Shown: one piece after another, positions 8,961 through 36,861 of the stretch | Position numbering within the stretch: position 1 is the stretch's first letter | How the letters are laid out: every line of letters begins with the position of its first letter | Assembly: GCA_964434775.1 (NCBI GenBank) | Contig: CAYSWH010000003.1 | Coordinates: 1,877-65,876, forward strand | Origin: an uncultured Candidatus Saccharibacteria bacterium | Lineage (GTDB): Bacteria > Patescibacteriota > JACMRA01 | Direction: 5' to 3' | Length of the DNA stretch: 64,000 bases | Notes under the pieces: model-generated | Seen by the model: the letters and a program-made list of their open reading frames with translations, nothing else | What the model was told of the DNA's origin: nothing | The model's database searches: none | Position numbers and translations under genes: made by a program

Positions 8961-9050
8961 GTATATTTTTAAGTTTCCTTTAAAGGTACAACTTTCTGAA
9001 GGGTTAGCCGGATATATTAATATAAACTTTTTAACTAAAAAACTCTTATA

Positions 9051-9278
9051 TATAGTCTATCCGAAGATAACCTATACACACTTGTCACGGCGAACTTGTT
9101 TCGGCACCTCTTCGAATAGATCCTGAAATAATAATTGTCATTCCGAACTTGTTTCGGAATCCCTTCGAATAGATCCTGAAATAAATTCAGGATGACTGTG
9201 TGGTAAATTCAGGATGACCACTTGGCAAGTGACGGAGAAAAATTTGGAAATGTTTAGGTTTGAGAGAGGATGGCTATA
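9051..9278 (+). mobile_element. MITE-like element, copy A (228 bp, internal ~55 bp module duplication)
   Basis: Bounded by TA-TAGTCTATCC ... GGATGGCTA-TA. Shares the hairpin modules cgaacttgtttcg, gatcctgaaataaattcaggatgac and cacttggcaagtg, and the aaatttggaaatgt block, with five other copies. Confidence 0.8.
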
Positions 9279-9416
9279 CCATAAAGAAAAAAGGATATTA
9301 TTAGAAAAGTGTAATATTTTTAATTTATAGTTGTAATACTATACGGAAGCAAGTTAAGGATCCAATTTGCTTTTGATTTTTAAAATATAATTTGTAACTA
9401 TAAAATAATTTACGAT

Positions 9417-10153: not shown

Positions 10154-10183
10154 TTACTCAGTTCAAGCAAAACAGATACTTTG

Positions 10184-10209
10184 GCCCGGGTTAATGCCCG
10201 GGTTTTTGT
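10184..10209 (+). terminator. Rho-independent terminator
   Basis: gcccggg-ttaat-gcccggg followed by tttttg, about 30 nt after the stop at 10153. Confidence 0.7.
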
Positions 10210-10350
10210 TTATTTGACCGAAATGAATAAGTTACGGATAACTTAAGCACTAAATTAAATTTAGAAAGGAAGTTGAAAAAAATAATCTTAAGATCTTGGA
10301 ATTTTTTGATGTAGCTAACCTTCAAAGAGTTTTAGCAAATTGGAAATAGT

Positions 10351-12540
10351 ATGAAATATCCGAATTTTGACCCTCAAAGAAACACTTACCACTCAAATAA
10401 AACTCCTCTCGTAGCTTTGATTGGTCTGCCGAATTCAGGTAAAAGTACTTTACTTAATCGTATTACCGGTACCAAGAAGGCGATTGTGGCTAAAGAAGCT
10501 CATACAACCAGGGATTTGAATTTCGGTGAGGATGTCTGGGATGATATGTACGTTCGATACGTGGATACCGGAGGGTTGGTGCCTTCTCCGGAGGATAAAG
10601 TCCAACGGCAAATCCAGATCAAGAGTTGGTCGGCTATCAGTGAAGCAGATTTATTGGTTTGGGTTATTGATCGGAAACAAGATCCGGAAACTATCAGCGA
10701 AGAAATTGTACAAAGAATTTGGAAATTGAACAAGCCGTACATTATTGCTTTAAATAAGGTGGATGATCCTAAGCACGAAAAAGATATTTCCGAGTATGTG
10801 CGTTTGGGCGGTCAAGGATTTGTCAATGTAAGTGCTACTTCGTGTTACGGTTTGAATGAATTTTTGGATATGGTGGTCTTTGAGTTGGAAAAAAACGGAT
10901 TTGAAAAGATTGATTACTCCAATATTTCTTTATCCGAATCAAAAGAAAAAAAGAAAAAGAGCAAGGCCAAGGAAGTAAAAAAAAGCAAAACCGGAGATTT
11001 TTTTATAGTGAGGGATAGTACTGAAGAAGGTCCGGGACTCTACGAATCGATTAGTTCGGAAGAAGCTTTTGAGGAGAGTAGGGAAGTTATAAATCCGCTA
11101 AAAAACATAATTTTTGATTTGGAAGGGGTAGTTTTTGAAGACAGAGTCAAACAGATGGTCGAATTTTTGATCAATTCAGATAACTCTCTAACGGAAGCAA
11201 GGATATTAAAAATTTTTAAGAAAAATAGAAAGCGAGGTTTAAGTGCTCGTAAGGATTTAGAGTTCTGGGAGAATGCTTTGGAAGAACTAAAATTGGATTA
11301 TTCCGCTGAGGAGCTTATGGAAAAATACTTGGGACTATCAAAGGCAAATCAGCAAGTGGAAGAGTTTATTAAACAGAGATCAGAAGAGGAATATAAGCTT
11401 TTTTATTTATCCAACGGCGGCAAAAAAGAGGCTCTTCCTAGAGCTAATCACTATATAATGGAATATTTTGAAGACGGGATTTATAGTTTTCAGGTAGGTG
11501 CAAATAAACCGGATCCCAAGATTTTCAGGGAACTTTTGGAGAGCTATGATCTAAATCCTGATGAAACATTATTTATCGATGATAAAGATAAAAATGCCGA
11601 AGCAGCTCGAAACTTAGGAATGTGGGGATTGGTTTACGAAGATGAAAAAACTAACATTCAAGAGGGTTTTGAGAGGGTTATTTACGGAGAAATTCAAAAA
11701 ATTCCGGAAACACCCAAGATTTTGTTGCTTGGAAAGCCTAATGTCGGTAAAAGCTCCCTTTTTAATGCTCTTTGTAAAAAGGATCTGCAAATTGTAACTG
11801 ATCTCCCGGGTACTACTTTGAGTGTGAATGACTACTTGCTGGAAAGAACTTACGAAGACAAATATTTCAACAAACACCAAAAAAAATACGTCTTGTTAGA
11901 TACTGCCGGAATTAGAAAATCAGGCCAGAGAACATATGGCGTAGAAACTTTTGCCACTTATCGAACGATTCAAGCAGCTCACCAGGCTGACATTATTTGC
12001 TTTTTGGTGGATGCCTCTCAGCCGATTACCCATCAGGATCAAGTGGTGGCCGGGATTTGCCGGGAGGCTAATAAAGGGTTGGTGATTGTAGCAAACAAGG
12101 CAGACTTGGTAGATGAAGAGCAACGAAAAAGGTTCGTAAAAGATTTCCGTTTCCGTTTCCAATTTCTCAAAATTCACAAATTTATCTGGGTGTCCGCTAC
12201 GGAAGATAAAGATTTTACCGAATTATGGCAGGCAATTAACGAAGCAAAATCAGGACGAGAAAAAACGATTCCCAGAGAAGAGGTACGAAAACTCTTTAAC
12301 TACCTAATGAAAAAGAAACCACCAAATAAATTACACAACAAAAAAAGGCCGGTTATCTACGATCTTATTTACGCCAAATCCGCCCCTCCCACTTTTGAAC
12401 TGCTAGTCAAAGATAAAAGCACTATCCATTGGTCCTATCAGAGATTTTTAGAAAACATTATTCGTAATCAATTTAATCTGCACGGCAGTGGAATGAAAAT
12501 ACTTTTGAAGGAGGTAGATAGAAAGAAAGTCGTAGGTTAA
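10351..12540 (+). CDS. der: Ribosome-associated GTPase Der/EngA with a ~270-aa insertion (K/E-rich linker plus HAD-like domain) between GD1 and GD2
   Basis: GD1: GLPNSGKST, DTGGL, NKVD. Insertion: IIFDLEGVVFED, YLSNGG, GANKPDPKIF, LFIDDKDKNAEAA. GD2: GKPNVGKSS, DTAGI, NKADL. C-terminal KH-like tail. Confidence 0.85.
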   Translation: MKYPNFDPQRNTYHSNKTPLVALIGLPNSGKSTLLNRITGTKKAIVAKEAHTTRDLNFGEDVWDDMYVRYVDTGGLVPSPEDKVQRQIQIKSWSAISEADLLVWVIDRKQDPETISEEIVQRIWKLNKPYIIALNKVDDPKHEKDISEYVRLGGQGFVNVSATSCYGLNEFLDMVVFELEKNGFEKIDYSNISLSESKEKKKKSKAKEVKKSKTGDFFIVRDSTEEGPGLYESISSEEAFEESREVINPLKNIIFDLEGVVFEDRVKQMVEFLINSDNSLTEARILKIFKKNRKRGLSARKDLEFWENALEELKLDYSAEELMEKYLGLSKANQQVEEFIKQRSEEEYKLFYLSNGGKKEALPRANHYIMEYFEDGIYSFQVGANKPDPKIFRELLESYDLNPDETLFIDDKDKNAEAARNLGMWGLVYEDEKTNIQEGFERVIYGEIQKIPETPKILLLGKPNVGKSSLFNALCKKDLQIVTDLPGTTLSVNDYLLERTYEDKYFNKHQKKYVLLDTAGIRKSGQRTYGVETFATYRTIQAAHQADIICFLVDASQPITHQDQVVAGICREANKGLVIVANKADLVDEEQRKRFVKDFRFRFQFLKIHKFIWVSATEDKDFTELWQAINEAKSGREKTIPREEVRKLFNYLMKKKPPNKLHNKKRPVIYDLIYAKSAPPTFELLVKDKSTIHWSYQRFLENIIRNQFNLHGSGMKILLKEVDRKKVVG

Positions 12541-12612
12541 ACCGAGATGCATTATTTTTCCTTATTTGAACCCTTCTTTTTCTTTCTGAAAGGGATAAAC
12601 TTAATAGCAATC

Positions 12613-13185
12613 TCACTTCTTTTTGCCTCTACCTTTGAATTTATTATCGTGTCTAGGAAGTAGATTAAAAATCCTTTCGGCCAGCCAGCCAGGAAATCCG
12701 GGTGCTTTGATTATTAGCTTGAGTCCTTTGGCCCATTTCGGTACTTTACCTTTATTATCTGTAGCCATTCTGTCTAAAGCCCTTGAAGCTGAGTCCGTAA
12801 GATTTTTAGCAATTATTGTAGTATAGGCGAGGTCATCTCCTATACCAAGCAAAGGAATTATATCTGGTAAAATATCGGCAGGAGAAAAAACCAAAAGAGC
12901 TAAAATCGCGGTCTTAAACCAGACTTGTTCGTCAGACAGATGCTCATTTGGGGTAACTACTAAAAAATGTAAATACCGGGGGTCAAGATTTCTTATCATA
13001 GAAGCAAAGCTAAAAGAGCTTTCCGGTTTTGCCATTTCTTCTTCAGCTAATTTGCTGGGATCAACTTCAGGGGCTAGTGCGTCTATTTGAGGTAGCCCTA
13101 ATTCATCCAATCTTTCTGCTGCAGGAGGTGTTTCGGGATCTTCTCTTTCATTTTGTCTGGTTGTTTTTTCCATGTTCATAAGCAA
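12613..13185 (-). CDS. DUF1232 (YkvA-like) domain protein
   Basis: VFSPADILPDIIPLLGIGDDLAYTTII matches the DUF1232 signature (D-hIPD-hIP-hG-hDD) as I recall it. Confidence 0.6.
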   Translation of the reverse strand: MLMNMEKTTRQNEREDPETPPAAERLDELGLPQIDALAPEVDPSKLAEEEMAKPESSFSFASMIRNLDPRYLHFLVVTPNEHLSDEQVWFKTAILALLVFSPADILPDIIPLLGIGDDLAYTTIIAKNLTDSASRALDRMATDNKGKVPKWAKGLKLIIKAPGFPGWLAERIFNLLPRHDNKFKGRGKKK

Positions 13186-13194
13186 AATAAGTTT

Positions 13195-13740
13195 TTAAGC
13201 GGCAAGAGCAGTATCACCTTGAACAGACTCTCCTCGTTTTTTTACCGCTCCTTTTCCGACTGCCAGTCTTGTCAGCCAATCAGGCAATCCTGTATCTTCA
13301 GCTCCTTTTCTAACTATTATATGGGCCACAACTTTTCTTAGTTCGTTGGCAACCAAAACATCATCAGCAAGACCAAGTGGTCCTAAGACTATCTCCGGGG
13401 CTATAAGTCTACAGGGCTAATAAGTATATGCCGCCAAAATTACTGCTTTTGTATAAAGGGCTTCCGTAGATAATCTACGATTATTTAAAGGGTTTCTAGT
13501 TAACTCCCAAAGAACTCCGGGTGTCCTCTGAATGAATTCTTTAATTTGAGTGATAACTGTGTTGTCGAAGGAACCGCCCATCACTTGTGTTTCATCTCTA
13601 GTTAGAGAATCCGGAGTCACTGTAGAATTAAGAGCTTCGATTCCAGGATCAGGTATTTCTTTTAACAATCTTAGAGCCTCGGCCTGATGTAGTTCATTTT
13701 TTTCATGAGTGGAAGGAGGTGTTTCAGCTGTGTAAGTCAT
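13195..13740 (-). pseudogene. DUF1232 paralogue interrupted by an in-frame TAG (13417..13419)
   Basis: The 13417..13740 ORF ends ...KAVILAAYTY-TAG. The same frame continues PCRLIAPEIVLGPLGLADDVLVANEL... to the TAA at 13195..13197. The stop aligns with the Ser of the neighbour's VFSPADILPD. Confidence 0.6.
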
Positions 13741-13744
13741 AATA

Positions 13745-14188
13745 TTAGTTTTTTAGGTCTTCTGTAAGCTTAAAATGTTCAAGAAAGTAACCGTAATTGA
13801 GGATAGCTCCCTCACAAAAGTCCAAGCTAAAGGTTTGATTAGCCTTCATTTCTTCGGTTATTAGAGTAATCAAAACAGAAGAGTCCTTGGTTTGCTTAAT
13901 TTTTACGACAAATTCTGAAGAGTAATTCTTTTTCTCATCCAGGCAGTATTTGAGGGTTAGCCAGAGAAATTTTTCGTACAATTTCCATTTAAAATCCAGA
14001 GCTTCATATTGATCACGATTGCTTGGATCCAATTCAATCAATCTATTGAGGATGAGTCTGCTAAACAAATTAATTAAGCCGTATTTGTGATCTTTTTCGA
14101 TTTGACCGAGGAATTCCTGAAGGGCTACTTGGGCTTTTTCTATGTCCAGATTGGACGGGGTGGTTGAATTTGAAGTCACTTGGTTCAT
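13745..14188 (-). CDS. Hypothetical protein (147 aa), first gene of a three-gene minus-strand unit
   Basis: Clean ORF, 4 nt upstream of the DUF1232 pair. No recognisable motif. Confidence 0.5.
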   Translation of the reverse strand: MNQVTSNSTTPSNLDIEKAQVALQEFLGQIEKDHKYGLINLFSRLILNRLIELDPSNRDQYEALDFKWKLYEKFLWLTLKYCLDEKKNYSSEFVVKIKQTKDSSVLITLITEEMKANQTFSLDFCEGAILNYGYFLEHFKLTEDLKN

Positions 14189-14285
14189 AAAATTTTATTA
14201 TTTCATTAAATATGAGTCAATATTGATTATGTCTTATTTTTCTTAAAAAATCAAATCAGTCAATCATCAGCCGGAAATTTGATAG

Positions 14286-14315
14286 TTGACAAATTTATTA
14301 TTGAAGAAGCATAAT
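14286..14315 (+). promoter_or_regulatory. Candidate sigma-70 promoter of the ABC transporter operon
   Basis: TTGACA (14286..14291), an 18-nt spacer, then CATAAT (14310..14315), about 50 nt upstream of the ATG at 14365. Confidence 0.4.
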
Positions 14316-14364
14316 GCTTTAACTAGCTTAAATAATAAGCAAATAAAAATTAAATCTTAAATAT

Positions 14365-15054
14365 ATGACGGCAATTATCTCAGCTTCAGAAGTCAGCAGG
14401 ATATTTGGAACCAAACAAAATCCGATTACTGCCGTAGATGAGGTTAACCTGGAAATCGAAAAAGGTAGTTTCACAGTTGTTCTCGGAAAAAGCGGTAGCG
14501 GAAAATCCACTCTCCTTAATCTGCTCAGTGGTTTGGACAAGGCTACCCGAGGTCAATTGATCGTTGACGGAAACGACTTGGGAAAAAGTAGTAGTAGTGC
14601 TCTAGCCAAGTATCGTTCAGGGATCGGTATAATCTTTCAATTTTACAACTTACTTCCCAATCTAAACGCTGTAGAAAATGTGATGATGGGAGCCTGGGCC
14701 GGCGGACAAGAAGTAAAAGAAGAAAAAGCTCTGGATATTATGAAAAAATTTGGAGTGGAGCATAGAGCAAAAGCCGATGTAAAGACTCTTTCGGGAGGGG
14801 AAAAGCAGAGAGTGGCTATTTGTAGGAGTTTAGTAGGCGATCCGGAAATTCTTTTTTGTGACGAACCTACCGGAGCTTTGGATACCGCCAACGAAAAACA
14901 AGTAATGCAAATTATTCAAGAAATCCACCAAACCGGGGTAACAATTTTTATGGTTACTCATAGTCCCGATTTTGCCGATTATGCTGATAAAGTGGTATAT
15001 ATGACCGACGGAAAGATAGAAAAAGTAGAAGAAAAACAAAAACAAGTTGCTTAG
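14365..15054 (+). CDS. ABC transporter ATP-binding protein (MacB/LolD/FtsE-like)
   Basis: Walker A GKSGSGKST, signature LSGGEKQR, Walker B LFCDEPTGALD, H-loop VTH. Confidence 0.88.
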   Translation: MTAIISASEVSRIFGTKQNPITAVDEVNLEIEKGSFTVVLGKSGSGKSTLLNLLSGLDKATRGQLIVDGNDLGKSSSSALAKYRSGIGIIFQFYNLLPNLNAVENVMMGAWAGGQEVKEEKALDIMKKFGVEHRAKADVKTLSGGEKQRVAICRSLVGDPEILFCDEPTGALDTANEKQVMQIIQEIHQTGVTIFMVTHSPDFADYADKVVYMTDGKIEKVEEKQKQVA

Positions 15055-15085
15055 AAAAGCTTAGTTAATTGAAATAATATAAATT

Positions 15086-16624
15086 ATGAACTACAAATCT
15101 TATAAAATAATTTTAGGAAGACAGTTTAAAGAAAAATGGGGGAGAATTCTTTTAGCCTCCGGAGGAATCATGGTAGGCGTCTGGGCCATAACGCTTACTT
15201 CCAGTCTTTCTTTGGGTCTGTCAGATACTATTGTTACGGCTATCAACAGTCAAAGCTTTGCCAAGCAAATCACCTTGACTAAGACCGAGGGTAACCAAAC
15301 CAATTTATTTGACATTAGTGACGCTCCCCAATTTGTACCTATAGGTTTTGAGGAATTAAAAGAGGTAGAGGAATCCAATCCGAATATTCAGGCAGTAGGA
15401 ATCAATAATATAATTGGCTTTTATGTTCATACTGATCAGGCTAATGAAAATACATCCTGTGTAGATTGGTCCAGGCAATTGCAACCGAACCCTGCTCAGG
15501 AATCTCCAAATCAAGAACCTCAAGGAGTAAATATTGAAACTCAACCGGAGCCGGGGAATACTCCTCAACCTCAATCACCGGATGAGATAGAGGACAACGT
15601 TAACAAATTGCAAGAAGAGTGTAATCAATCAACGGCCATGACAAACTCTTTTCCTCTTTTTTATGAATCCAATCGTACTAGATGGGTAGGGCCTGCGGAA
15701 AAGCCCGGCAGAGAAGAGATTGTGGTCTGTTATGAATGCGGTTCGGAAAATTTGGGCGAAAAATTGGGTTATGACAATCCCGAAGATCTAGTGGGTCAAG
15801 AAATTACAATTGAATTTTCCAGAGCCCCTGATCTGTTTCCCAAAGACAAGCCGATTGATGTGACAAATCTTGAAAGGCAGAATGCCGCGATTACGGAAAG
15901 CGAGCCGATCAAATTTACGGTAGCGGCGGTTGTAGATGATAGAGACACCGGAGTATTTGGTCTGCCGTCGTATTATTTTGATGAGTACTACTACAAAGAA
16001 GCCTTTAGTCTGGCTAATCCGGATGTAAGCGTGGATGATTACGGATCGGCCGAAAATGATGTTTTTGTGGATAGTTATGATAATCTTAATTCGGTTATGG
16101 ACCAATTAAGAGACGAAGGATACTTGGTTTTTTCCTTGGCTCAAACTATTATCAGCGGAGTAGAAACAGCCTTTTTGGGCTTGACCGTTATTTTGGGACT
16201 CTTTGGACTTATTGCTTTGGTAGCTTCACTGTTTGGAATAGTTAACGTAATGACAATTTCAGTCTTGGAAAGAAAAAAAGAAATAGGTATCCTCAAATCA
16301 TTAGGAGCCAAGGACCAAGATATCTTTAATATATTCTTTATTGAGAGCACCTTGCTTGGAATTTTGGGGTGGTTGATGGGTACTCTTTTGGCCGGAGGTA
16401 TGGGTCTTGGAATAGGACTCTTGAGTCAGTATTTGATAGAATCCAATGAGCAATGGAGAGATAATTTACAGGCCCTGAATATTGAGCAGTTTACACCTGC
16501 CTTTCCTTGGTGGATTTTGCTGGGAACCTTTGTTTTGGCGGTGTCCTTTACCGCTGTGTCCGGCTTGATTCCGGCAATTAGAGCCAGTAAGCAAAATCCG
16601 GTAGAAGTTCTGCGGAGTGAGTAA
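15086..16624 (+). CDS. ABC transporter permease, FtsX/MacB-type with a large extracytoplasmic domain
   Basis: N-terminal TM, a ~330-aa external domain, then the FtsX-like C-terminal bundle with ERKKEIGILKSLGAKDQDI. Confidence 0.8.
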   Translation: MNYKSYKIILGRQFKEKWGRILLASGGIMVGVWAITLTSSLSLGLSDTIVTAINSQSFAKQITLTKTEGNQTNLFDISDAPQFVPIGFEELKEVEESNPNIQAVGINNIIGFYVHTDQANENTSCVDWSRQLQPNPAQESPNQEPQGVNIETQPEPGNTPQPQSPDEIEDNVNKLQEECNQSTAMTNSFPLFYESNRTRWVGPAEKPGREEIVVCYECGSENLGEKLGYDNPEDLVGQEITIEFSRAPDLFPKDKPIDVTNLERQNAAITESEPIKFTVAAVVDDRDTGVFGLPSYYFDEYYYKEAFSLANPDVSVDDYGSAENDVFVDSYDNLNSVMDQLRDEGYLVFSLAQTIISGVETAFLGLTVILGLFGLIALVASLFGIVNVMTISVLERKKEIGILKSLGAKDQDIFNIFFIESTLLGILGWLMGTLLAGGMGLGIGLLSQYLIESNEQWRDNLQALNIEQFTPAFPWWILLGTFVLAVSFTAVSGLIPAIRASKQNPVEVLRSE

Positions 16625-16749
16625 GGTACTTCCTTTTGTACATTAGATATCTCGGTAAATTAAATCAAGTTACTCAAAAAAATCCAAGACAGGGTTTAGA
16701 AAAGAGTAAAGTCTCGATTTAAGCAAAATAGGCAGAATGTTGAGGTCGT

Positions 16750-16931
16750 TATTGTCGATCCGAATATAACCTACAACACTTGTCATACTGTCACGGCGAA
16801 CTTGTTTCGGCATCTCTATATGATGAGGAGATCCTGGAGTAACAATGAAAAGACCCTGAAACGAGTTCAGGGTGACGGTCTCCCTCCGAGTGAAATTTGG
16901 AAATGTCTAGGTTTAATTTGGTTTGACTATA
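16750..16931 (+). mobile_element. MITE-like element, copy B (divergent right half)
   Basis: Its left 60 nt (atccgaatataacctacaacacttgtcatactgtcacggcgaacttgtttcggcatctct) are identical to copy C. It ends aaatttggaaatgtctaggtttaatttggtttgacta-TA. Confidence 0.75.
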
Positions 16932-17150
16932 CTTGCCAATCAAGGAAAATTAAATAAGAAAAGAGAAAAAGTTATTAAACCAACCTTCTTAAACATTAAA
17001 AATAATAAAATAGCCTAGACATTCAACACTAACGAACATCAAGGTACAAGCCTTAGGCTAAAAAAATCTTAAGCAAGGGCAGGGACGACGAGTAAGACGA
17101 ATCTTGATGTCTCATCCCCACCACTTGCCCGGTTCCGGTTAGCAGTCGTT

Positions 17151-18121
17151 TTAGCGGGTAATTAGCGGTAAGTATACCACCTCGGTGGGCGGCGGCGGAT
17201 CATCGTCGGTGGGCAGAGGTCCGTACCGGACGATTTCGTTTCCTACATTGCAAACGACCGTGCCATTTGAGAATTCACCTGAAAAATTCCCGCAGGGGCC
17301 TAACAGACTAAGGTTGTCCAAGGTCCCGCTCCAGGCCTGGGGGCCCATGGGACCATCGGTGAGTACCAGGTACTTCCCATCCCCACCGGCCTCGAAGACG
17401 TCTACGAAATACGCCCCCCTTTGGGGAGTATCCCGCATGACGACGCTGCCATTCCCACCATCCTTTAAGATAGTTGAGTACGGAAACAACTTGTCCACAA
17501 ACATTATGGAGCCGTCGTTCTGGGGGCTTTTGGCGTGGGTCGGCACTACCGGTCGATTGGCTTCTCCCCTCATTGTCTCGAGGGGGATTCCGGCGATTGC
17601 ACCTGGTGTGGTCGGTGTCCGCAAGATGACATCCAGGCTGCTGAAGAACAGGAAGCCATTGAGAAGGACGGGTTTATTTCCAGCAAATATATGCTGGCCA
17701 CCATCGGTCGTCAGCAGGTGGACGCTTCCCCGTGTTTCAAAGGCGACCGTCCCCTCCGAAGCAACAAGATCCATGGGTCGATCCACCCCTTCGACGATGG
17801 TCGTCGTTGTATTCTCGGTAAGACGTTGCAGGGACCATGAGCCATCCCCCCCTGCAGGAAGAAGAGAATGGAGGTTGGACTCTCCCATATTGGGTGGGCG
17901 GTCGGGCCATCATGGATTTTTTCCAGGTCGCCGTCGCCGTAGACGTACAGGGCTGATTCCTCAACGAACACGATCTGGCCTTCCGTGTTCACATCGGGGC
18001 TGTGTCCTTCGGCGATCCGGACGGGAGCTGTTTGGGCCTGGGCCTGGCCCTGGGTCGCTCCGACTCCGACTAAACCTACTAACATAAGCAGCAGGGTGAG
18101 TGGTGTGAGTGCGTAACGCAT
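17151..18121 (-). CDS. Secreted protein encoded on a high-GC island; frame-disrupted as assembled
   Basis: 18121 opens MRYALTPLTLLLMLVGLVGVGATQGQAQAQ (signal peptide) ...GDLEKIHDG. The 17151..17888 frame is open from about 17915 (WPDRPPNMGESNLHSLLPAGGDGSW...). The two join with a 1-nt change in the G/C run at 17903..17905. The repeated G/D/T-rich strand-like segments suggest a beta-rich fold. Confidence 0.65.
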
Positions 18122-18396
18122 TTTTACACCTTTCGTGTATTATACAAACAATAGAACCGGCTCGTGCCGGGTTTTCCCGGGGGTTTGCTCCGACTTGAGG
18201 TCTCCTACCTCTCAAGTCAGTGTTACCCGGGGAAAGGTTTGTTTTGAAAGTTGTTTGGGTTCGTTGTGTTGTTGCTGTTGCGATTTGTTCTAATTTTGAT
18301 CTTGTGGGTTTGTTTATAAAACAAATTGACGACTAAGTCCGTGTGTAGGTGTGTATTAAGTGCAACTATGATTGTTTGTTTTTTGCGTTTTGGTTA

Positions 18397-18556
18397 TATA
18401 GCCATCCCTTCTTAAACCAAGACATTTCCAAATTTTTCTCTGTCACTTGCCAAGTGGTCATCCTGAATTTATTTCAGGATCTATTCCAAGAGATGCCGAA
18501 ACAAGTTCGCCGTGACAGTATGACAAGTGTTGTAGGTTATATTCGGATAGACTATA
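18397..18556 (-). mobile_element. MITE-like element, copy C (160 bp, inverted relative to copy B)
   Basis: On the plus strand it reads TA-TAGCCATCCC...ggatagacta-TA. Its reverse complement aligns along its whole length with the family consensus. Confidence 0.8.
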
Positions 18557-18964
18557 TTTTAACGAATAAATGTCTGTTAAGAACGGTTTGTTTGAATTGT
18601 GTTGGTGTCGAATCTCCAAAAAACTTTGAAAACAAGCCTTTCCCTCAGGTTTACTTGACTTACTTGAGAAGAGGAAGTTTCCAAATTGATTGATTATATT
18701 TTTTAGTTTGTTGTGCAATCAATTGTGTTTACCTTTTTTCCTAAAATTTTAACGCTAACTTAACCGGGCAAATTACATGTAAATTTACTTATGATTTTGA
18801 CTATTAAATTTTGCAGTCAAAATCCAAGCGGCAATTGTATACAGAAAAACTAGTTTTTTGTCCAGCCGGAAATTTTTAACGCTTGATATAGATAAAGCGA
18901 TTATCAGAAATAATTTAATAATTGTTTTTAGTAGTTGACTCTATGTCTTTGTTTTTAACCGTGT

Positions 18965-19054
18965 TGGTGCGGTCGAGAGGATTTGAACCTCCACACCAAA
19001 AAATACTGGCACTACCACCTCAAGGTAGCGTGTCTACCATTCCACCACGACCGC
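18965..19054 (-). tRNA. tRNA-Leu (anticodon GAG), CCA encoded
   Basis: Reverse complement gcggtcgtggtggaatggtagacacgctaccttGAGgtggtag...ggttcaaatcctctcgaccgcacca, with a long variable arm. Confidence 0.88.
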
Positions 19055-19107
19055 TTGAATACTTGAATAAGACAACATGTTAATTATCTACACAATCTAA
19101 CCTGTCT

Positions 19108-19181
19108 TGGAGCGGATAGCGGGAATCGAACCCGCACTTCAACCTTGGGAAGGTTATGTTCTACCACTAAACTATATCCGC
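19108..19181 (-). tRNA. tRNA-Gly (anticodon CCC), CCA encoded
   Basis: Reverse complement gcggatatagtttagtggtagaacataaccttCCCaaggttgaagtgcgggttcgattcccgctatccgctcca, with U73 discriminator. Confidence 0.88.
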
Positions 19182-19201
19182 AAACAAACCGTAAAATTTT
19201 T

Positions 19202-19285
19202 TGGTGCCCAAGGAGGGACTCGAACCCTCACACCAAAGGCACATGCTCCTAAGGCATGCGTGTCTACCAATTCCACCACCTGGGC
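19202..19285 (-). tRNA. tRNA-Leu (anticodon TAG), CCA encoded
   Basis: Reverse complement gcccaggtggtggaattggtagacacgcatgcctTAGgagcatg...ggttcgagtccctccttgggcacca, with a long variable arm. Confidence 0.88.
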
Positions 19286-19303
19286 TTTTTAGCTTGTCAA
19301 GCC

Positions 19304-19332
19304 ATAATATAAGCAAAATCCAAAATAGTCAA
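19304..19332 (-). promoter_or_regulatory. Candidate sigma-70 promoter of the Leu-Gly-Leu tRNA cluster
   Basis: The minus strand reads TTGACT (19332..19327), a 17-nt spacer, then TATTAT (19309..19304). The first tRNA 5' end is about 19 nt downstream. Confidence 0.55.
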
Positions 19333-19537
19333 GAGCCGAGAAGTTCTTGAACCATACCCAAATCCATCCCAACTTTTACTCACAAAAGAAAAACACTAAA
19401 TATTAAGTATTTGTAGCATCTAGTGTCAAAATCGAAACCGGTTTGAGTGTAATTTGATCGATTCAAGAATACTCTTGGGAAATTATAAAAGATTGGGGTG
19501 CTTTTTTGAGTCTTTTTTGTTAATTTTCTAGAAAAAT

Positions 19538-21493
19538 TCAGATTTGATAGAGGTAGAGGCTGTCTTCTTGCTCGAGGGGGTGTTTGTAGGATCTGAGCCT
19601 GGAATTAAGGACGGAAAGTTCGGGATAGTGATAGTCATCTATAAGTAAATATTCAACCCCCAGATTGTCCAGATTCCTTTCAAAAGTTCGATTTGCTTCA
19701 TCCGATGGGGTTTGGGTAGTGTATTCCGCGATAATCTGCAAAATCTCCCTGTCGTTTTGGCCTTGAGAGAAAGTAAGATTTTGGCCGGTGTCGCTATTTT
19801 TGACTGCCGCGTAATTGGGAGATAGAACGTCACAATTCATAATTTTGGTAGACGGATTGGCGTGATAGACTTGGGAATAGGAAGAGACCATATAAACTTG
19901 GTAAGGTAAGTAAAGCACTTTTTCACCCGGTTGACATTTGTCTGAGACAAAATCAAAGATTTGAGGGTAATCCACGTAGTTGAAATTTTGGGCTAAGGGA
20001 CCAAATAGAAGTAAGCTGCCAAAAAGATTGAGAGAGACTGCCAAAATAAAGATTCTTTGCCATAAATCTTTTATCCAAGACCAGTTTGCCAAAACCGCAA
20101 TGGTGAAAGAAACTAAGGCCGGTGCAAAAAACTTCCCGGCTTCTCTGTAAGTGTAACTAAAGGGTAGTTCGTAAAACAATTTGTTGATCTCCCGCCAAGG
20201 TGTGGGTGAAAGCCCAAACAGAAGTATCAATGAAGCAAAAAGTATAAGAAACCAAACAAAATAATCCTTTTGTAAATATAGCCCTTGAGTAAGAAATTTT
20301 TTTAGAATCAAAAGTATGACGACGGCAAAAACCCATATGATAAAAACCGCTGCTAAACTGTTAAAATAGGGGCTAAAGAAGGCCAGGGAACCAAGATCCT
20401 TGCGTATTGAACTCAACTCCAAAAAAGTTGAACTGTCCCAGCTGGCTGAACCGATTAAGGCTCGAAGATAAAGATTTCCACCATTAGGATCCAAGCTAAA
20501 AGCCTCAATTATTTTTAACTTGGCCTCCGGGTTAGTCAGAATTTGGTTATCAAAAAAAGCTTTGTGGTTACTTTCTCCAAATTTTTGTAATAAATATAAA
20601 TAACTTGGTAGAAAAATGCTTACCGGAACAAGAACATATTTGAGAATCTCGGAAGGCTTAAACAGTTTTAAAATCGGATTATTCCTAAAAGTTTCGGGTA
20701 GATTCGAAGAGTTGGAATTTTTGGGTTGATCTAATAAATTCTCGGGTATATTTTCTTCCGGTTTTTTGTGATCTCCGGAAGATTCCAAAATAGTTTTTTT
20801 ACCTTGATATAAAGAAGCAAGTTTTACAAAGTATCGCCAGAAAATACTTGCTATAATAAAGAAAAACAGAAAACCGCCAAAGTGTTCGCTAAAAAAAGTA
20901 ACAAACAGAGCATAAATGCTCGCCAAAACATAATCTTTCCAATCAAAATTATTCTGATTCCAATATTTTTCTATAAAAATCGTCAATATATAAGCTCCGG
21001 GAAGAAACAAAAAGTAACCTCTAAGTACATTCATTTGTCCCATTAGTAATCTCTCAAAGGTCCAGGGATTATAGGTTAGGAAAAAACTAAGTAGAATAAT
21101 ATAAATCTCGGCCGGAGAGTTTATTTGATATTTTTTATGAAAATAATCAGAGATTTTTTTTAAACTCAAATATGAGAAGACGGTCCCCAGAGTAAACCAA
21201 AAAATCAGCTGTAGACTTTCAACGGCGGCAGGACTTAATCCTATAGAACGAAAAGAATTATATACAGAAAACGGAAGAGCTCTAGAAATAAAGTCAAACT
21301 CTAGTGAACTGTAGTCGTAAGGTACACTTAACCAATCACGATATAAGGGTTGTCCTTTGAGTCTGAAAAAGCCGATACTAACAAATAAAGCCAAAAAGAT
21401 GGTTCCCGATAAATAAAGAGAATCGGCCCTACTCTTATTTAAGTAATTGATAATTGATTCAAATTTTTCTTTCATACTTTTTTGAATCCGCAA
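19538..21493 (-). CDS. Large polytopic membrane protein with a C-terminal soluble domain (GT-C-like glycosyltransferase candidate)
   Basis: 651 aa with more than 10 predicted TM helices, a hydrophilic insertion, and a ~150-aa C-terminal domain. The architecture resembles lipid-linked-sugar transferases. No diagnostic motif was confirmed. Confidence 0.45.
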   Translation of the reverse strand: MRIQKSMKEKFESIINYLNKSRADSLYLSGTIFLALFVSIGFFRLKGQPLYRDWLSVPYDYSSLEFDFISRALPFSVYNSFRSIGLSPAAVESLQLIFWFTLGTVFSYLSLKKISDYFHKKYQINSPAEIYIILLSFFLTYNPWTFERLLMGQMNVLRGYFLFLPGAYILTIFIEKYWNQNNFDWKDYVLASIYALFVTFFSEHFGGFLFFFIIASIFWRYFVKLASLYQGKKTILESSGDHKKPEENIPENLLDQPKNSNSSNLPETFRNNPILKLFKPSEILKYVLVPVSIFLPSYLYLLQKFGESNHKAFFDNQILTNPEAKLKIIEAFSLDPNGGNLYLRALIGSASWDSSTFLELSSIRKDLGSLAFFSPYFNSLAAVFIIWVFAVVILLILKKFLTQGLYLQKDYFVWFLILFASLILLFGLSPTPWREINKLFYELPFSYTYREAGKFFAPALVSFTIAVLANWSWIKDLWQRIFILAVSLNLFGSLLLFGPLAQNFNYVDYPQIFDFVSDKCQPGEKVLYLPYQVYMVSSYSQVYHANPSTKIMNCDVLSPNYAAVKNSDTGQNLTFSQGQNDREILQIIAEYTTQTPSDEANRTFERNLDNLGVEYLLIDDYHYPELSVLNSRLRSYKHPLEQEDSLYLYQI

Positions 21494-21947
21494 TATTTTA
21501 TTTTGATTTTCAAAATCATGGAAAGTTACTTTTTTAAAAAATCAAGATTTAGTTTTGTCCTATTCGTCTATGACTGTCAACAGGCACAAGAGTATATTTT
21601 TGCATCATCATTTAGGTGAAGAATGAAGCAGACTTTAACCGAGAGGTAAAATTAATAAAATTTATTCAAAAACCTAAGCCTGCTCTTCCGGATTGGATCC
21701 AATATTCATTTTTCCGACTTTGTTAAGATTTCTATTATTTAAAAATTCTCTAAGGTTATAGCTATTATCCAGGACGGTTTTTTGATGACACCTTTTAGAA
21801 AACAAAGTGACAAATTCTTGCTTAATAGGATTAGGGGTAACCATTGTCAAAATTTCTAAGCCGAATAATTAACACGGAAATATTGACACAATTGGAATTA
21901 TTCAGTAGATGATAATAGTTTATTTCATTATTAATATTACACCGAAA

Positions 21948-22967
21948 ATGACTAAAAAAGCATTAATCACGGGAATTGCGGGACAAGACGGATCTTATCT
22001 AAGTAAACTACTTCTGGAAAAAGGATACGAAGTATACGGAGCATTGCGCCGGGAAGATTTTCAAAATTTGCATAATCTGGAAAAATTCGGCATTCGTGAG
22101 CAGATCAAAACCGTTCACTTTGATCTCTTGGATCAACAAAGTATTTTAAAAGCAATTTCAGAGATAAAACCTGACGAAATGTATAATTTGGCTGCTCAGT
22201 CATATGCCGGGGATTCTTTTGAATGGTCTATTTCTATTTCTATGGCCAACGGTTTGGCAGTTGGGTATATTTTAGATGCGATTTATAATTTTTCTCCGCA
22301 TACTAAACTTTTTCAAGCCTCTTCTTCACAAATGTTTAAAGAATCTAAGGAAGAGCAAAAGTTAAACGAAGACACTCCCTTAGAACCCAAAAATCCTTAC
22401 GGAACTTCCAAATTATATGCTCACTGGCTGGTCAAAAATTATCGGGAGAGTTATGATCTGTTTGTGGTATCCGGAATCCTTTTTAACCATGAGTCGGAAT
22501 TGAGAGGAAAACATTTTGTAACCAGAAAAATCACTGCTCATGTAGCTGCAAATGCCAAAGGTCTAACGGATAGTCCGCTACAGTTAGGAAATATAGATGC
22601 CCAAAGAGATTGGGGGTATGCACCTGATTATGTTGAAGCGATGAATCTTCTCCTCCAGAGCGAGGTGCCGGAAGATTATGTAATTGCCACCGGAAGGGCA
22701 ACAAAGATTAGAGATTTTGTAGAAAAATCCTTTGCTGTTATCGGTAAAAAAATTAACTGGGAAGGTCAGGGTGTTGATGAAAAAGGGCTGGATTCAAATA
22801 CCGGTGAAATCCTGGTAGAAATCAACCCGAATTTTTATAGGTTAGGCGAACAAAAAGTTCAACTGGGAGATGCTTCCAAGATAGAAAATCAATTGGGCTG
22901 GAAATCTGGGAAAACTGTAGAAGATATTGCCAAAATCATGGTTGAACACGATTTATCCTTGCTTTAA
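21948..22967 (+). CDS. GDP-mannose 4,6-dehydratase-like SDR (paralogue 1, active-site variant)
   Basis: [41 protein letters not shown] (YxxxK), NHESELRG. The Gmd STSE motif reads SSSQ. The start was moved to the ATG at 21948 (MTKKALITG). Confidence 0.75.
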   Translation: MTKKALITGIAGQDGSYLSKLLLEKGYEVYGALRREDFQNLHNLEKFGIREQIKTVHFDLLDQQSILKAISEIKPDEMYNLAAQSYAGDSFEWSISISMANGLAVGYILDAIYNFSPHTKLFQASSSQMFKESKEEQKLNEDTPLEPKNPYGTSKLYAHWLVKNYRESYDLFVVSGILFNHESELRGKHFVTRKITAHVAANAKGLTDSPLQLGNIDAQRDWGYAPDYVEAMNLLLQSEVPEDYVIATGRATKIRDFVEKSFAVIGKKINWEGQGVDEKGLDSNTGEILVEINPNFYRLGEQKVQLGDASKIENQLGWKSGKTVEDIAKIMVEHDLSLL

Positions 22968-22998
22968 AAAAAACTGTTTGCGACCTAAGCAAATTAGT

Positions 22999-23868
22999 TT
23001 ATGGAATTTTTTGTAGTGACTCGATTATTTTGAGCACTTCAAGTGCCTGTCTGTTGTTTAGCTCAAAGTTAACTCTTTTATTAATTAATTCTTGGATCAT
23101 CTTGGTAAGAGCGTCATTGCGGGGATTCTCTTGAAAAATAATTTCCTGATTCAGGTAGATTTTATCGTTACTCCAAGAATAGGACTTACCGTGAGTGTCT
23201 ATTTCCAGAGATTTAAGATTATTATTCTTTACAGTTCTATCATAGTTAAAAAGAATTTTCGGACCGTTTGTTATTATCTCAAATTTTAGTTTATCCTTTT
23301 CCGTTTTTTCAGTAACTACTTTATTGATACTAAACGTTGAGAGTAAATTAAGTATCAGGTAGAGGTCGTGATACACTAAATTATTCCATAGAGTATCGCC
23401 AAAGGTCCCGTATTTTTGCCAGCTAAAGGAAATTTTTTGAACATTCTCACCTTTTAGAAACTCTTTTAACTTTACAAAACATTCGCGGTGTCTAAATACA
23501 TCATCTACGTATAGATCTACCCCTTTTTTTGTTGCTAACCTTACTAGCTCCTCAGCTTCATTAGTATTTTCTGTTATAGGTTTCTCGCAAAAGATATTTT
23601 TGTTACTTAGAATAGCTGCTTTTAACAATTTGTGATGAGTATTGACCGGAGTGGCGATAAAAATCCAATTAACATCTTTATCATTAAGTAGATTATGATA
23701 GTTGTCGGTTATCTGAAAACCGTTTTGCTGGGCGTAAGATTGATTTTCTTCATTGATAGTTCGCTTACAGACTATCTTGAGTTTTCCTTCTTCTAAAAGT
23801 TTTCGGGCAATTTTTTTCCCGAAATTTCCTAATCCGACCAATCCGATATCGGGTTTTTTGTGAGCCAT
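22999..23868 (-). CDS. Gfo/Idh/MocA-family NAD(P)-dependent oxidoreductase
   Basis: N-terminal Rossmann IGLVGLGNFGKKIA and an FCEKP motif. Convergent with gmd paralogue 1. Confidence 0.75.
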   Translation of the reverse strand: MAHKKPDIGLVGLGNFGKKIARKLLEEGKLKIVCKRTINEENQSYAQQNGFQITDNYHNLLNDKDVNWIFIATPVNTHHKLLKAAILSNKNIFCEKPITENTNEAEELVRLATKKGVDLYVDDVFRHRECFVKLKEFLKGENVQKISFSWQKYGTFGDTLWNNLVYHDLYLILNLLSTFSINKVVTEKTEKDKLKFEIITNGPKILFNYDRTVKNNNLKSLEIDTHGKSYSWSNDKIYLNQEIIFQENPRNDALTKMIQELINKRVNFELNNRQALEVLKIIESLQKIP

Positions 23869-23955
23869 GTTTTATCTTATAATTTTTTGGTTGTTTTTTG
23901 GCAAATCTTCTTGCTGCTTGTTCAAAGGGTAAAATTGTAATATAATTGTACTGAA

Positions 23956-24786
23956 ATGAAGAAAAATTCAAAAAAAATTCAGGAACCTGAGGTCTCTGTG
24001 CTCATGCCTGTCTACAACCGTGAGAAAATGGTTGTAAAGAGTGTAGAGAGTATTTTGTCTCAGACCTTTGAAAATTTTGAATTTTTGATTATCGATGACG
24101 GAAGTACTGATTCTACATTTAAAACCCTGAGACAGCTGGCAAAGATAGATAAACGGATTAAAGTATGGCAAAATAAGAGAAACTTAGGTATTGCCAGGAC
24201 TAGAAATCTGCTTTTACGGAAAGCGGTAGGGAAATATGTTGTTTGGCAGGATTCAGATGATTTTTCCCTGCCTTATCGGATTGAAAAACAATATGATTTT
24301 ATGCAGAAGAATCCCGGGGTAGTTGTTTGCGGAAGTTTCTTGAGCGTTGCTTACGATTGTGACAGAGAGGTCTTGCGTCGATATTCGGCGGATGACTCCA
24401 TACTAAAAAAAAATATTTTCAGACAATCTCCGGTGGCACAGCCGGCAGCAATAATTCGGAGGAGGGAAATTTTGCAAGCCGGCGGTTATAACGAGACTTT
24501 AAATTTTGCTGAAGACTTGGATTTGTATTTACGTATCGGGCAAAAGTATGAATTTTCCAATTTGCAATTGCCCTTAGTTAAGTACATGGTAAATTCCGAT
24601 TCGGTCTCATTTAACAAAGTTAAGGAAGTTATGCACTGCAGTAATTATCTTAGAAAAAAAGCTGTGAAAGAATACGGCTACAGAATGACTATCAAGGATA
24701 AAATTCATACATTTTTAGTTTATTTAGCAACATCTTTACCTGAAACCGTTATATTTTGGTTATTTGAGAAGTCTCGAAAAGGATAA
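23956..24786 (+). CDS. Glycosyltransferase family 2
   Basis: VSVLMPVYNREKMVVKSVESILSQTFENFEFLIIDDGSTD plus DSDD and a later ED motif. Confidence 0.85.
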   Translation: MKKNSKKIQEPEVSVLMPVYNREKMVVKSVESILSQTFENFEFLIIDDGSTDSTFKTLRQLAKIDKRIKVWQNKRNLGIARTRNLLLRKAVGKYVVWQDSDDFSLPYRIEKQYDFMQKNPGVVVCGSFLSVAYDCDREVLRRYSADDSILKKNIFRQSPVAQPAAIIRRREILQAGGYNETLNFAEDLDLYLRIGQKYEFSNLQLPLVKYMVNSDSVSFNKVKEVMHCSNYLRKKAVKEYGYRMTIKDKIHTFLVYLATSLPETVIFWLFEKSRKG

Positions 24787-24841
24787 ATTGAGGTTTTTAT
24801 AAACCGATTAATTAGTCGGTAATCATATAATATGCATTATT

Positions 24842-25315
24842 ATGAATCTAAATAATATTAATCAGAATTTTCCTCCAAACCAACCGAACGGCAACTTAAA
24901 TCCGGGATTTAATTCAAACCTTTCAGCCAATAGGGCAAATCAACCAAGTCAACAAAATCACAGTGTTTCGTCTCCTCAATATGATAACTACAGCTCAAAC
25001 CCTGATAATACATATAAAAACTATGTCTCAACCGAAAGCAGTAATTACACCTCCAACACTAACCAGAACTATCAATCTAACCGGAAAAATTACCGTTCCG
25101 GGGCAAGTTCGAATTATCGTTCCTTAAATAAACAAAAAAATAACTCAAGTCGCGGGAGTTATAGTCGAATAGATGGGGTAGAAGGCTTGCCGAAGACCGT
25201 TAATAAAGAAAAAAAAGGAAGCTCCGGGACGTTGTCGTATATAATCATAATTGTAATTACTTTCATTATCGGAGGACTTATGCTTGGAGGTCTGGCTTTG
25301 TTTTTTTCTGTTTAG
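24842..25315 (+). CDS. N/S/Q/Y-rich low-complexity protein with a C-terminal TM anchor
   Basis: About 130 aa of Asn/Ser/Gln/Tyr-rich sequence, then IIIIVITFIIGGLMLGGLALFF at the C-terminus. Confidence 0.55.
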   Translation: MNLNNINQNFPPNQPNGNLNPGFNSNLSANRANQPSQQNHSVSSPQYDNYSSNPDNTYKNYVSTESSNYTSNTNQNYQSNRKNYRSGASSNYRSLNKQKNNSSRGSYSRIDGVEGLPKTVNKEKKGSSGTLSYIIIIVITFIIGGLMLGGLALFFSV

Positions 25316-25653
25316 CAACTCGTCCAATATGCGAGAAATAGGTTTCTTAAAGGAGGCAGTATCTCCTGATGTCTCTCGGTATCAAGATGAAATTGATTCT
25401 TCCGTTTTAATAGAAGTAATTGATTTGGAGGATAGTTTGGATGGATACACTATAAACCTAAGCAGGTATAAGCCGGTGAGTTAAAGACGGTTCAATTTAA
25501 TTTTAACCAATTTCAAAGAAATAGATCGGAAGAGAGTGTATAGTGATTACAAAATGACTTTTGAAAATTATTTCTCAAGGCAAAATAAACAGTTGGTTTC
25601 AGAATAAAGAAGGGAGGACTAATGATCAATTATTCAACAAGTGTTGGAAGTTT

Positions 25654-25849
25654 TATAGTTGATCCGAACATAACCTATACACATTTGTTCCGGCGAACTT
25701 GTTTCGGCATCTCTTCAAATAGATCCTGAAATAAATCCAGGATGACGAGGTTGCAAATTCAGGATGACCACTTGGCAAGTGACGGAGTAAAATTTGGAAA
25801 TGTCTGGGTTTAAGAGGGGGTGGCTATAAATCAAGAAGAGCAAAAGAAA
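25654..25849 (+). mobile_element. MITE-like element, copy D (core 25654..25828 plus a 21-nt shared extension)
   Basis: TA-TAGTTGATCCGAAC...GGTGGCTA-TA. 195 of 196 nt identical to the reverse complement of copy E by hand alignment. Confidence 0.85.
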
Positions 25850-25949
25850 TAAAATAATTATATTTCATCCTCTCAAAATTAGTATCAGCTCACCTATTAA
25901 AAAACTCCCATAACAGGGAGTAATCGAAGAGTCTAACAAAATCTGTTTC

Positions 25950-26291: not shown

Positions 26292-26341
26292 AGAAAAAAA
26301 TGGTTAGCATATACACACACCTTTGTCAAAACAAAACAATA

Positions 26342-28577: not shown

Positions 28578-28592
28578 AATGAACTAAACAGT

Positions 28593-30008: not shown

Positions 30009-30204
30009 TTTCTTTTGCTCTTCTTGATTTATAGCCATCCCCTCTTAAACCCAGACATTTCCAAATTTTACTCCGTCACTTGCCAAGTGGTCATCCTGAA
30101 TTTGCAACCTCGTCATCCTGGATTTATTTCAGGATCTATTTGAAGAGATGCCGAAACAAGTTCGCCGGAACAAATGTGTATAGGTTATGTTCGGATCAAC
30201 TATA
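30009..30204 (-). mobile_element. MITE-like element, copy E (inverted partner of copy D)
   Basis: Its reverse complement equals copy D except for one position (gggGtggctata versus gggAtggctata). Confidence 0.85.
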
Positions 30205-30492
30205 TAATGATAATTAATAAATATATTTAGACGAAAAAAGACCACATCCAAAGGATTGATAGTTTTAGATAAATTCCTCATCTCTTTTTGACTAAAAAAG
30301 CGGCATCTAAAATTAGAATTACTTCTTTTTAATCCATACATTCTTTTGCCTGTTTAAGTATTTAGGAGGTCGACAGAAAAACGTTTTTATTACTGCATCT
30401 AATCAGTATAAATCCGACAATTTTTTATTTATCAAATAGAAGGAAATTTTTTTGTGCATCCGTATTTTTAATTTAAGGGGTGTCTTAATTGA

Positions 30493-36562: not shown

Positions 36563-36664
36563 CAGATTTTGATTTTACGCGACTTTGAAATTTCATGTTC
36601 TATAGCTAAACACGCTTTAACTTAGATACTTTCCCGGTAATCAGAATACCCCGTCAATACTTTT

Positions 36665-36861
36665 TATAGTCGATCCGAACATAACCTATACCCACTTGTC
36701 ATGCCGGACTTTCATTGTCATGGCGAACTTGTTTCGGAATCACTTTCGAAGATAGATCCTTAAATAAATTCAGGATGACGGGATAGCAAATTCAGGGTTA
36801 CCAGTTGGCAAGTGACAGAGTAAAATTTGGAAATGTCTAGGTTTAATGAGGTTTAGCTGTA
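36665..36861 (+). mobile_element. MITE-like element, copy F
   Basis: TA-TAGTCGATCCGAACATAACC ... aaatttggaaatgtctaggtttaatgaggtttagctg-TA. Same module order as the other copies, with a private insertion. Confidence 0.78.

Follow-up and report, generated by a model that had tools for sequence, protein, structure and literature searches.

The window analysed here is a 64,000-nucleotide (nt) stretch of DNA from an uncultured Candidatus Saccharibacteria bacterium (assembly GCA_964434775.1, contig CAYSWH010000003.1, positions 1,877 to 65,876 of the forward strand), and its source samples are microbial-mat metagenomes. Our subject is one host spacer within it, between the gene for an ATP-binding cassette (ABC) transporter permease of the FtsX family and a tRNA cluster, where a GC-rich island carries a single frameshifted gene and is bracketed by two inverted copies, B and C, of a short repeat that resembles a miniature inverted-repeat transposable element (MITE). 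An earlier account made from the letters alone (the sequence-only reading) had taken the island for foreign DNA that a pair of non-autonomous elements had captured or mobilised in the manner of a composite transposon. The composition of the island is indeed foreign by GC content, by tetranucleotides and by third codon positions, and the part played by the repeats is weighed below. The features of the island and its immediate surroundings, in window coordinates, are as follows.

17080..18235, no strand: GC-rich foreign core, 56.2% GC, with gradual boundaries (left about 17065-17110, right about 18205-18235)
17151..18121, minus strand: frameshifted orphan gene, its N-terminal frame open over 18121..17711 and its C-terminal frame over 17888..17151, 323 amino acids (aa) when merged
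18032..18121, minus strand: Sec-type signal peptide MRYALTPLTLLLMLVGLVGVGATQGQAQAQ, recognised by eye in the translation, with an AXA-type cleavage region
17846..17852, minus strand: run of seven G (G7; C7 on the plus strand) within Q-G-G-D-G codons, the same in all assemblies
18122..18240, minus strand: structured 5' leader with GC-rich hairpins, including a terminator-like stem at 18157-18170, TATAAT at 18139-18144 and AAAGGTG at 18127-18133
16750..16931, plus strand: repeat copy B, outer end TATTGTCGATCC, with a divergent central module and a hairpin at 16853-16873 on the minus strand
18397..18556, minus strand: repeat copy C, outer end TATAGTCTATCC, without one hairpin module that is present in copies A, D, E and F
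16932..17079, no strand: left spacer, AT-rich and unique, 17-40% GC up to about 17065 and then rising
18236..18396, no strand: right spacer between the core and copy C, unique and G+T-rich by composition

Composition and assembly of the GC-rich island

The sequence-only reading had placed a jump in GC content at about 17080-18235 and proposed windowed GC and tetranucleotide statistics as a check. Both bear it out: the interval holds 56.2% GC as against 36.3 ± 2.9% (maximum 43.4%) in 1.1-kb windows clear of the island (z about +7), and the strand-symmetric tetranucleotide distance from the whole-window profile is greatest at 17101-18200 (z = 7.25). Windows of 200 nt contain 54-60% GC across 17100-18200 versus 25-45% on both sides, and the island is the sole 1-kb bin above 43% GC in all 64 kb. 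The shift takes about 40 nt at the left edge (17065-17110) and about 30 nt at the right edge (18205-18235), with both transitions located 130-160 nt from the repeats, within unique sequence, and the spacers flanking the core show no similarity elsewhere. Base composition and codon usage of the island are both unlike those of the host, the departure by which genomic islets are recognised.

A further worry raised in the sequence-only reading, that the island might be a chimeric join, is largely removed by the recovery of the same sequence in the same context from five assemblies of two sequencing runs (k = 31 to 127), of which the Joint Genome Institute (JGI) assembly may share reads with the others. 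The window lies within JGI contig Ga0153773_1000047 (111 kb) at 100% identity. Equally identical are the MEGAHIT contigs k127_465770 of run ERR2407578 (window 7881-25780) and k127_181211 of run ERR2407577 (window 8641-18500), together with two k = 31 Logan contigs from both runs (16858-18467 and 16858-18444). Both island junctions are spanned by the JGI, ERR2407578 MEGAHIT and Logan contigs, while the ERR2407577 MEGAHIT contig covers the left junction and the island.

The frameshifted orphan gene

Two open reading frames (ORFs; translation table 11) occupy the minus strand of the island in differing frames, one of 136 aa (17711..18121) that starts with MRYALTPLTLLLMLVGLVGVGATQGQAQAQ and one of 245 aa (17151..17888). 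The sequence-only reading had described one gene for a secreted protein at 17151..18121, with a product of 323 aa when its frames are merged; its strand, span and signal peptide stand, and the merged product needs a one-nucleotide correction. The frameshift could in principle lie anywhere in the stretch of about 17905-17711 where both frames are open, and its simplest placement is the G7 run, the sole homopolymer in that stretch, whose context is CAG-GGG-GGG-GAT-GGC. One added G (G7 to G8) yields ...ILFFLQGGDGSWSLQ... within a single 323-aa frame, and the repaired product regains a (D/G)GG(D/N/Q)G motif that follows a strand and has five occurrences. No variation in the length of the run was found at the level of assembly, C7 being present in all five assemblies from the two runs. 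Given the one-nucleotide loss in the sampled population, the gene is either a decaying pseudogene or the OFF state of a slipped-strand switch. What it encodes is one secreted-type protein, as had been proposed, and the signal peptide read by eye in its translation suggests that the product would be exported.

The assignment to the minus strand follows the GC content of the three codon positions (GC1/2/3), which is 0.68/0.41/0.67 and 0.60/0.47/0.62 in the two minus-strand parts and so carries the coding pattern GC1 > GC2 < GC3. A 300-aa ORF on the plus strand (GC1/2/3 0.53/0.62/0.58) was rejected as a shadow ORF because it lacks this coding periodicity and has no homologue or family. The GC3 of host ORFs is 0.345 ± 0.048 (n = 49, maximum 0.498) versus 0.62-0.67 in the island; the gene thus shows no visible amelioration, being about six standard deviations from its host.

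The nearest named relatives of the neighbouring permease are 40-43% identical and are labelled 'candidate division SR1', 'Candidatus Gracilibacteria' and 'Patescibacteria group'. By these homologues the low-GC host belongs to the Patescibacteria, within the candidate phyla radiation (CPR). SR1 and Gracilibacteria recode UGA as glycine. An alternative code of this kind was rejected for the present host, which uses the standard code, because TGA terminates genuine genes here and no genes merge under translation table 25 anywhere in the window.

Upstream of the gene, the start region of TATAAT and AAAGG noted in the sequence-only reading is present on the minus strand at 18139-18144 and 18127-18133. 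The GC-rich hairpins noted at 18150..18230 are likewise real, the predicted fold of the 122-nt leader having an energy of -45 kcal/mol (z = -4.3). In this predicted fold the Shine-Dalgarno sequence AAAGGTG pairs with CCUUUCC at about 18230-18237. A covariance search with Rfam 15 reached the gathering score for tRNAs only and returned nothing but chance-level matches (E > 5) within 16600-18950.

Protein comparisons covered about 15 billion proteins, including ones predicted from the same samples. With the merged 323-aa sequence as query, a word-indexed search of 5.8 billion clusters returned only the query itself; with the 245-aa part as query, a phmmer scan of all 1.84 billion representatives returned the query and one match that we do not credit (E = 2.7e-4, a repeat protein). 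Nothing significant for the island protein was found in Pfam, NCBIfam, PHROGs or PDB sequences, and no match to the island in plasmids and phages (blastn, tblastn, six frames) or in viral contigs. The 90% cluster of the protein holds no variants, and a 1.8-kb contig of aberrant GC content would probably escape binning. By these sequence comparisons the island protein is a strict orphan whose only credible match is itself. The search for a donor lineage that the sequence-only reading had proposed was therefore uninformative, and the donor cannot be named.

A single-sequence AlphaFold model, made with no alignment, is all beta with a predicted local distance difference test score (pLDDT) of 41.6. 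Its top Foldseek matches are all beta-propellers (BamB, the acylaminoacyl-peptidase propeller, sortilin and TolB), at the weak levels of E >= 3e-3 and a template modelling (TM) score <= 0.29. Internal repetition in the island protein is not significant (z = 1.6). The predicted structure gives a hint of a beta-rich, weakly propeller-like protein.

The repeat family and the bracket around the island

The repeat to which B and C belong forms a family of six copies of 160-230 nt, spread over 9-37 kb of the window. The other four copies, and the sequence by which a transposase of the family might be recognised, are as follows.

9049..9278, plus strand: copy A, from the repeat alignment
25651..25849, plus strand: copy D, 199 nt, a 99% inverted pair with E
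30009..30207, minus strand: copy E, the inverted partner of D
36662..36861, plus strand: copy F, from the repeat alignment
Element-end sequence of the family, TAGTCGATCC: the ends that a cognate transposase's own element would resemble

The ends of the family, TATAGTCGATCC and GGATGGCTATA, form an imperfect inverted repeat of 11-12 nt that is conserved in the alignment, TA is found on both sides of all six copies, and internal hairpin modules are present in varying number. All copies lie outside credible genes, with a spurious 114-aa ORF across C (18349..18693) as the sole overlap, and all fall within the first 37 kb, with none in the other 27 kb of the window. The family is below 600 bp in length, non-coding, multicopy and bounded by terminal inverted repeats, and by these sequence features it fits the definition of a MITE. 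The whole element folds no better than shuffled sequence (z = -0.2). Its pattern had no match in viral contigs, and in the fetched loci it matched only copies of the same contig. The contig of an 85%-identical relative ends 192 nt past its permease gene and carries no copy of the repeat in that interval, and its spacer is not alignable. The repeats are native to the host, since they are low in GC and four further copies stand in host DNA.

The bracketing of the island by an inverted MITE-like pair with left ends outward, as described in the sequence-only reading, is confirmed. The private left arm of 60 identical nt is also found as described and is private within the window, but it forms part of a longer arm of 68 nt at 97% identity (16750-16817 / 18489-18556), in which two mismatches 4 and 8 nt from the outer ends leave the 60 identical nt. 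A 48-nt core of this arm has no other match in the window even with 3 mismatches allowed. Outside the arm, B and C are about 75-80% alike. Both carry TA on the inner as well as the outer side, and because every copy has its own TA...TA flanks a duplication around the whole unit would be indistinguishable. By a post hoc estimate, six random intergenic insertions hit both island flanks in about 2-3% of trials, and in less than 1% when orientation is considered. The insertions are not independent, however, as D and E are also inverted and mutually closest (199 nt, 99%). That in both pairs of nearest neighbours, B/C and D/E, the two copies are each other's closest relatives and inverted suggests local duplication or homogenisation.

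Two further sequence features fall within the bracketing copies. A promoter-like TTAACA-18 nt-TATAGT (10/12) at 18551-18580 on the minus strand has as its -10 element the terminal TATAGT of copy C and faces the island gene across C. About 280 nt downstream of that gene, a terminator-like hairpin ACCCTGAACTCGTTTCAGGGT with a T-rich tail lies within copy B (16853-16873, minus strand), and the repeat module of B may serve as terminator for the island gene.

Copies D and E bracket 4.2 kb of host DNA of normal composition, which encodes a 113-aa ORF, an EVE-domain protein, a GNAT acetyltransferase, an epimerase and a 429-aa membrane protein. A sister strain is represented by the metagenome-assembled genome GCA_054921195.1, 98.2-99.7% identical to the window. 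In its contig JBUDSI010000011 the D/E segment (25651-30207) is reversed (1375-5934), with both flanks collinear. Either the repeats mediated a real inversion between strains, or an assembler chose this path over a 199-nt inverted repeat; MEGAHIT breaks at both D and E, and the sister-strain assembly runs straight through both repeats. Inverted pairs of the family do occur around native DNA and probably recombine there. The private B/C arm is explicable without joint transposition, because recombination or gene conversion between neighbouring inverted copies could produce it.

At the island itself the sister-strain assembly is interrupted on both sides. Contig JBUDSI010000138 ends at window position 16745, 4 nt before B, and JBUDSI010000011 ends at 18550, 7 nt inside the outer end of C; a MEGAHIT contig of ERR2407577 also stops, at 18560. 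The sister-strain break points do not match a simple TA-to-TA excision junction, and ERR2407577 crosses the left junction unbroken.

The sister strain differs from the window in two other places. A 90-nt stretch of the window (21647-21736) is missing from it, with an altered 3' end of an epimerase (352 versus 339 aa). A glycosyltransferase that is whole in the window strain (276 aa, about 23900-24800) is represented there by ORFs of 117 and 165 aa (JBUDSI010000011 6799-7628).

To the right of the island, the spacer contains the following features.

18965..19285, minus strand: tRNA cluster of tRNA-Leu(GAG), tRNA-Gly(CCC) and tRNA-Leu(TAG), with 3' ends toward the island and on the same strand as the island gene
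18230..18258, plus strand: arm X of a unique inverted repeat (26/29 nt, about 55 nt with indels), on the right boundary of the island
18616..18644, minus strand: arm Y, which pairs with X; it stands in native DNA beyond C on the right and is shared by the sister strain

The tRNA-Leu/Gly/Leu cluster has the island on its 3' side. An integrative island aimed at a tRNA would be expected to carry an integrase and a direct repeat of the tRNA 3' end at its far boundary. We found neither: the 3' end of the tRNA-Leu occurs once only with up to 3 mismatches allowed, and there is no integrase among the annotated genes of the neighbourhood. The X/Y inverted repeat flanks copy C, and it may be a scar left when the island integrated or when the locus was rearranged later, or it may mark the ends of another small element that C entered. 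Arm X also provides the strand that pairs with the Shine-Dalgarno sequence in the predicted leader fold.

Origin of the island and comparison with known systems

The reading that we judge a little better than even is that the island is a recent horizontally acquired orphan gene, now inactivated or phase-OFF, in a repeat-rich spacer beside a tRNA cluster, with B and C as passive bystanders. We infer that about 1.15 kb from an unsampled organism or element of about 55-60% GC would have integrated recently into a non-essential host spacer. The fragment would have brought one gene with its own Shine-Dalgarno sequence and structured leader, its product presumably Sec-exported, beta-rich and possibly propeller-like, and the gene would then have been interrupted by the loss of one nucleotide, most simply as G8 to G7 in the homopolymer. 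Native MITE-like elements most likely inserted separately at TA sites in dispensable AT-rich DNA, and the B/C arm would stem either from transposition over a short distance or from gene conversion among inverted neighbours. On this account B and C would not have brought the island in, and their part would be that of inversion substrates at most.

Several observations weigh against this account. A recent transfer should leave a near-identical homologue in a donor, and there is none among the roughly 15 billion proteins, those from the same samples included. Enclosure by two mutually closest inverted copies is only about 1-3% probable under random intergenic insertion. The sister-strain contigs break no more than 7 nt from the outer edges of B and C, which would fit a structural polymorphism of the whole unit, and there is no close relative covering the locus in which absence of the island could be demonstrated.

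One alternative, which we hold to be unlikely, is the one advanced by the sequence-only reading: B, the island and C would form a MITE-flanked composite transposon, a 1.8-kb unit moved now or recently by a transposase in trans through its outward left ends. The geometry is suitable, B and C being opposed in orientation, with left ends on the outside, and the inverted repeat at either outer end being at most 1 mismatch from the consensus. The 68-nt arm at 97% is shared with no other window copy, the bracket is improbable under random insertion (about 0.6-3%), and contigs end at 16745 and 18550 in the sister strain and at 18560 in the ERR2407577 MEGAHIT assembly. MITE pairs are moreover known from Acinetobacter to flank cargo in the manner of a composite transposon (PMC6382973). 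The claim of capture or mobilisation nevertheless received no positive support. The repeats cannot have carried in the high-GC island, because they are low in GC and present in native DNA, so that they could account at most for later movement; even if the unit did move, the entry of high-GC DNA between native elements would still need explaining. TA at the inner and outer sides of both copies is uninformative and gives no sign that the unit went in as one piece. Beyond the arm the likeness of B and C is only about 75-80%, no transposase or integrase is annotated in about 5-44 kb of the window, and the second inverted pair, D/E, encloses ordinary host genes. The contig ends do not match a clean TA-to-TA excision junction, and the ERR2407577 contig passes without a break from the left-hand host DNA into B and on across the island, which means that it was not broken there by a variant without the whole unit.

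No second copy of the cargo was found, the protein occurring at this locus only among the proteins compared. The sequence-only reading had also proposed a search for an empty site in related genomes, which yielded none, no sufficiently close relative spanning the locus. When GTDB genomes and JGI metagenomes were scanned with the permease, the proteins returned were only 25-30% identical and no close relative was among them; permease relatives at about 50% identity have other genes downstream and no synteny, and Logan contigs of a third run end in the tRNA cluster.

Comparably doubtful is a rival in which B and C recombine with each other. Homologous exchange across their inverted arms would flip the island, gene conversion would have made the arm, and together with the G-run the locus would be a variable surface-protein cassette. 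In its favour are the opposite orientation of the D/E segment in the sister strain, identical inverted arms long enough to recombine, a G7 run that falls in the 5' third of the gene, whose product would be exported, and upstream promoter-like sites on the same strand, one with the terminal TATAGT of C as its -10. Yet a single orientation and a single run length are seen in all five assemblies, the start signals of the gene lie within the segment, so that a flip is not obviously a switch, and the D/E 'inversion' could be an assembler's path choice at a place where MEGAHIT breaks. A wider functional view is possible but improbable to a similar degree: a gene captured from a high-GC neighbour, such as a cell lived on or preyed on, would have become, through a pair of native MITEs, a mobilisable or invertible cassette for a variable surface protein, with the G-run as an ON/OFF switch and the sister-strain breaks as a presence/absence polymorphism.

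We regard as highly improbable that the region is native, whether as a structured non-coding RNA or as a native gene of odd amino-acid composition. GC-rich islands in AT-rich genomes are often RNA genes, and the island adjoins a tRNA cluster, has a strongly structured leader and lacks a donor homologue; but no Rfam family matches in it even at E = 10, its open frames of about 245 and 136 codons show codon-position GC periodicity, a signal peptide and a Shine-Dalgarno sequence, and its GC excess at third positions reflects mutational or codon bias and not amino-acid choice. Less probable still, a high-GC genome piece misjoined into a low-GC contig is very unlikely on assembly-level comparison, for although the abrupt change in composition, the position between repeats and the metagenomic data might suggest it, the sequence is identical over the junctions in several assemblies, including the k = 31 Logan contigs of both runs, and the GC transitions stand 130-160 nt off the repeats in unique sequence.

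The Patescibacteria, whose genomes are tiny and which rely on other cells, are believed to acquire DNA from outside. Gene entries that are clean and unameliorated help to ask with whom these bacteria exchange DNA and how, and this locus presents a sharply bounded foreign fragment in a well-assembled context. It also brings to light a short, previously undescribed repeat family whose apparent D/E inversion suggests an influence on local genome structure. In practical terms the value of the locus is limited by a donor that cannot be named, a broken gene and mobility without positive evidence. If the MITE pair does move or flip its cargo, it would be a first example of MITE-mediated gene capture in this group.

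The preferred reading, of an acquired gene with bystander repeats, invites comparison with genomic islets that carry orphan genes, which are usually more AT-rich than their host. The island resembles them in its atypical base and codon composition, its single homologue-less gene and its position in a variable spacer by tRNA genes and repeats, but unlike them it is 20 points more GC-rich than the host, and it has no integrase or att repeat. Phase-variable surface-protein genes with poly-G tracts are found in Neisseria, Haemophilus and Campylobacter. As in these contingency genes, a G-run in the 5' part of a gene for an exported protein is placed such that a 1-nt change shifts the frame; in contrast to them, the tract is short (7), arises from Gly-Gly-Asp codons and shows no length variation in any assembly.

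For the bracket, the closest parallel is offered by the MITE composites of Acinetobacter, in which a 439-bp MITE pair surrounds class 1 integrons and MITE-297 surrounds a 76-kb mer region (PMC6382973). Like B and C, these are two short non-autonomous copies around acquired-looking cargo (PMC6382973). In Acinetobacter, however, the copies are identical and the unit or the MITE recurs across strains and plasmids, whereas here only the 68-nt arm is common, a single locus is concerned and there is no evidence of movement; the hosts differ as well, a proteobacterial pathogen there and a Patescibacterium here. Composite transposons of the Tn5/Tn10 type likewise have inverted terminal elements, outward functional ends and a passenger gene, but B and C encode no transposase and no unit-specific target duplication is recognisable. 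Finally, although no inversion of the island itself was observed, the D/E pair matches the inversions generally known to be mediated by insertion sequences (IS) or MITEs in that the bracketed segment is reversed in the sister strain, and B and C stand around the island in the same geometry.

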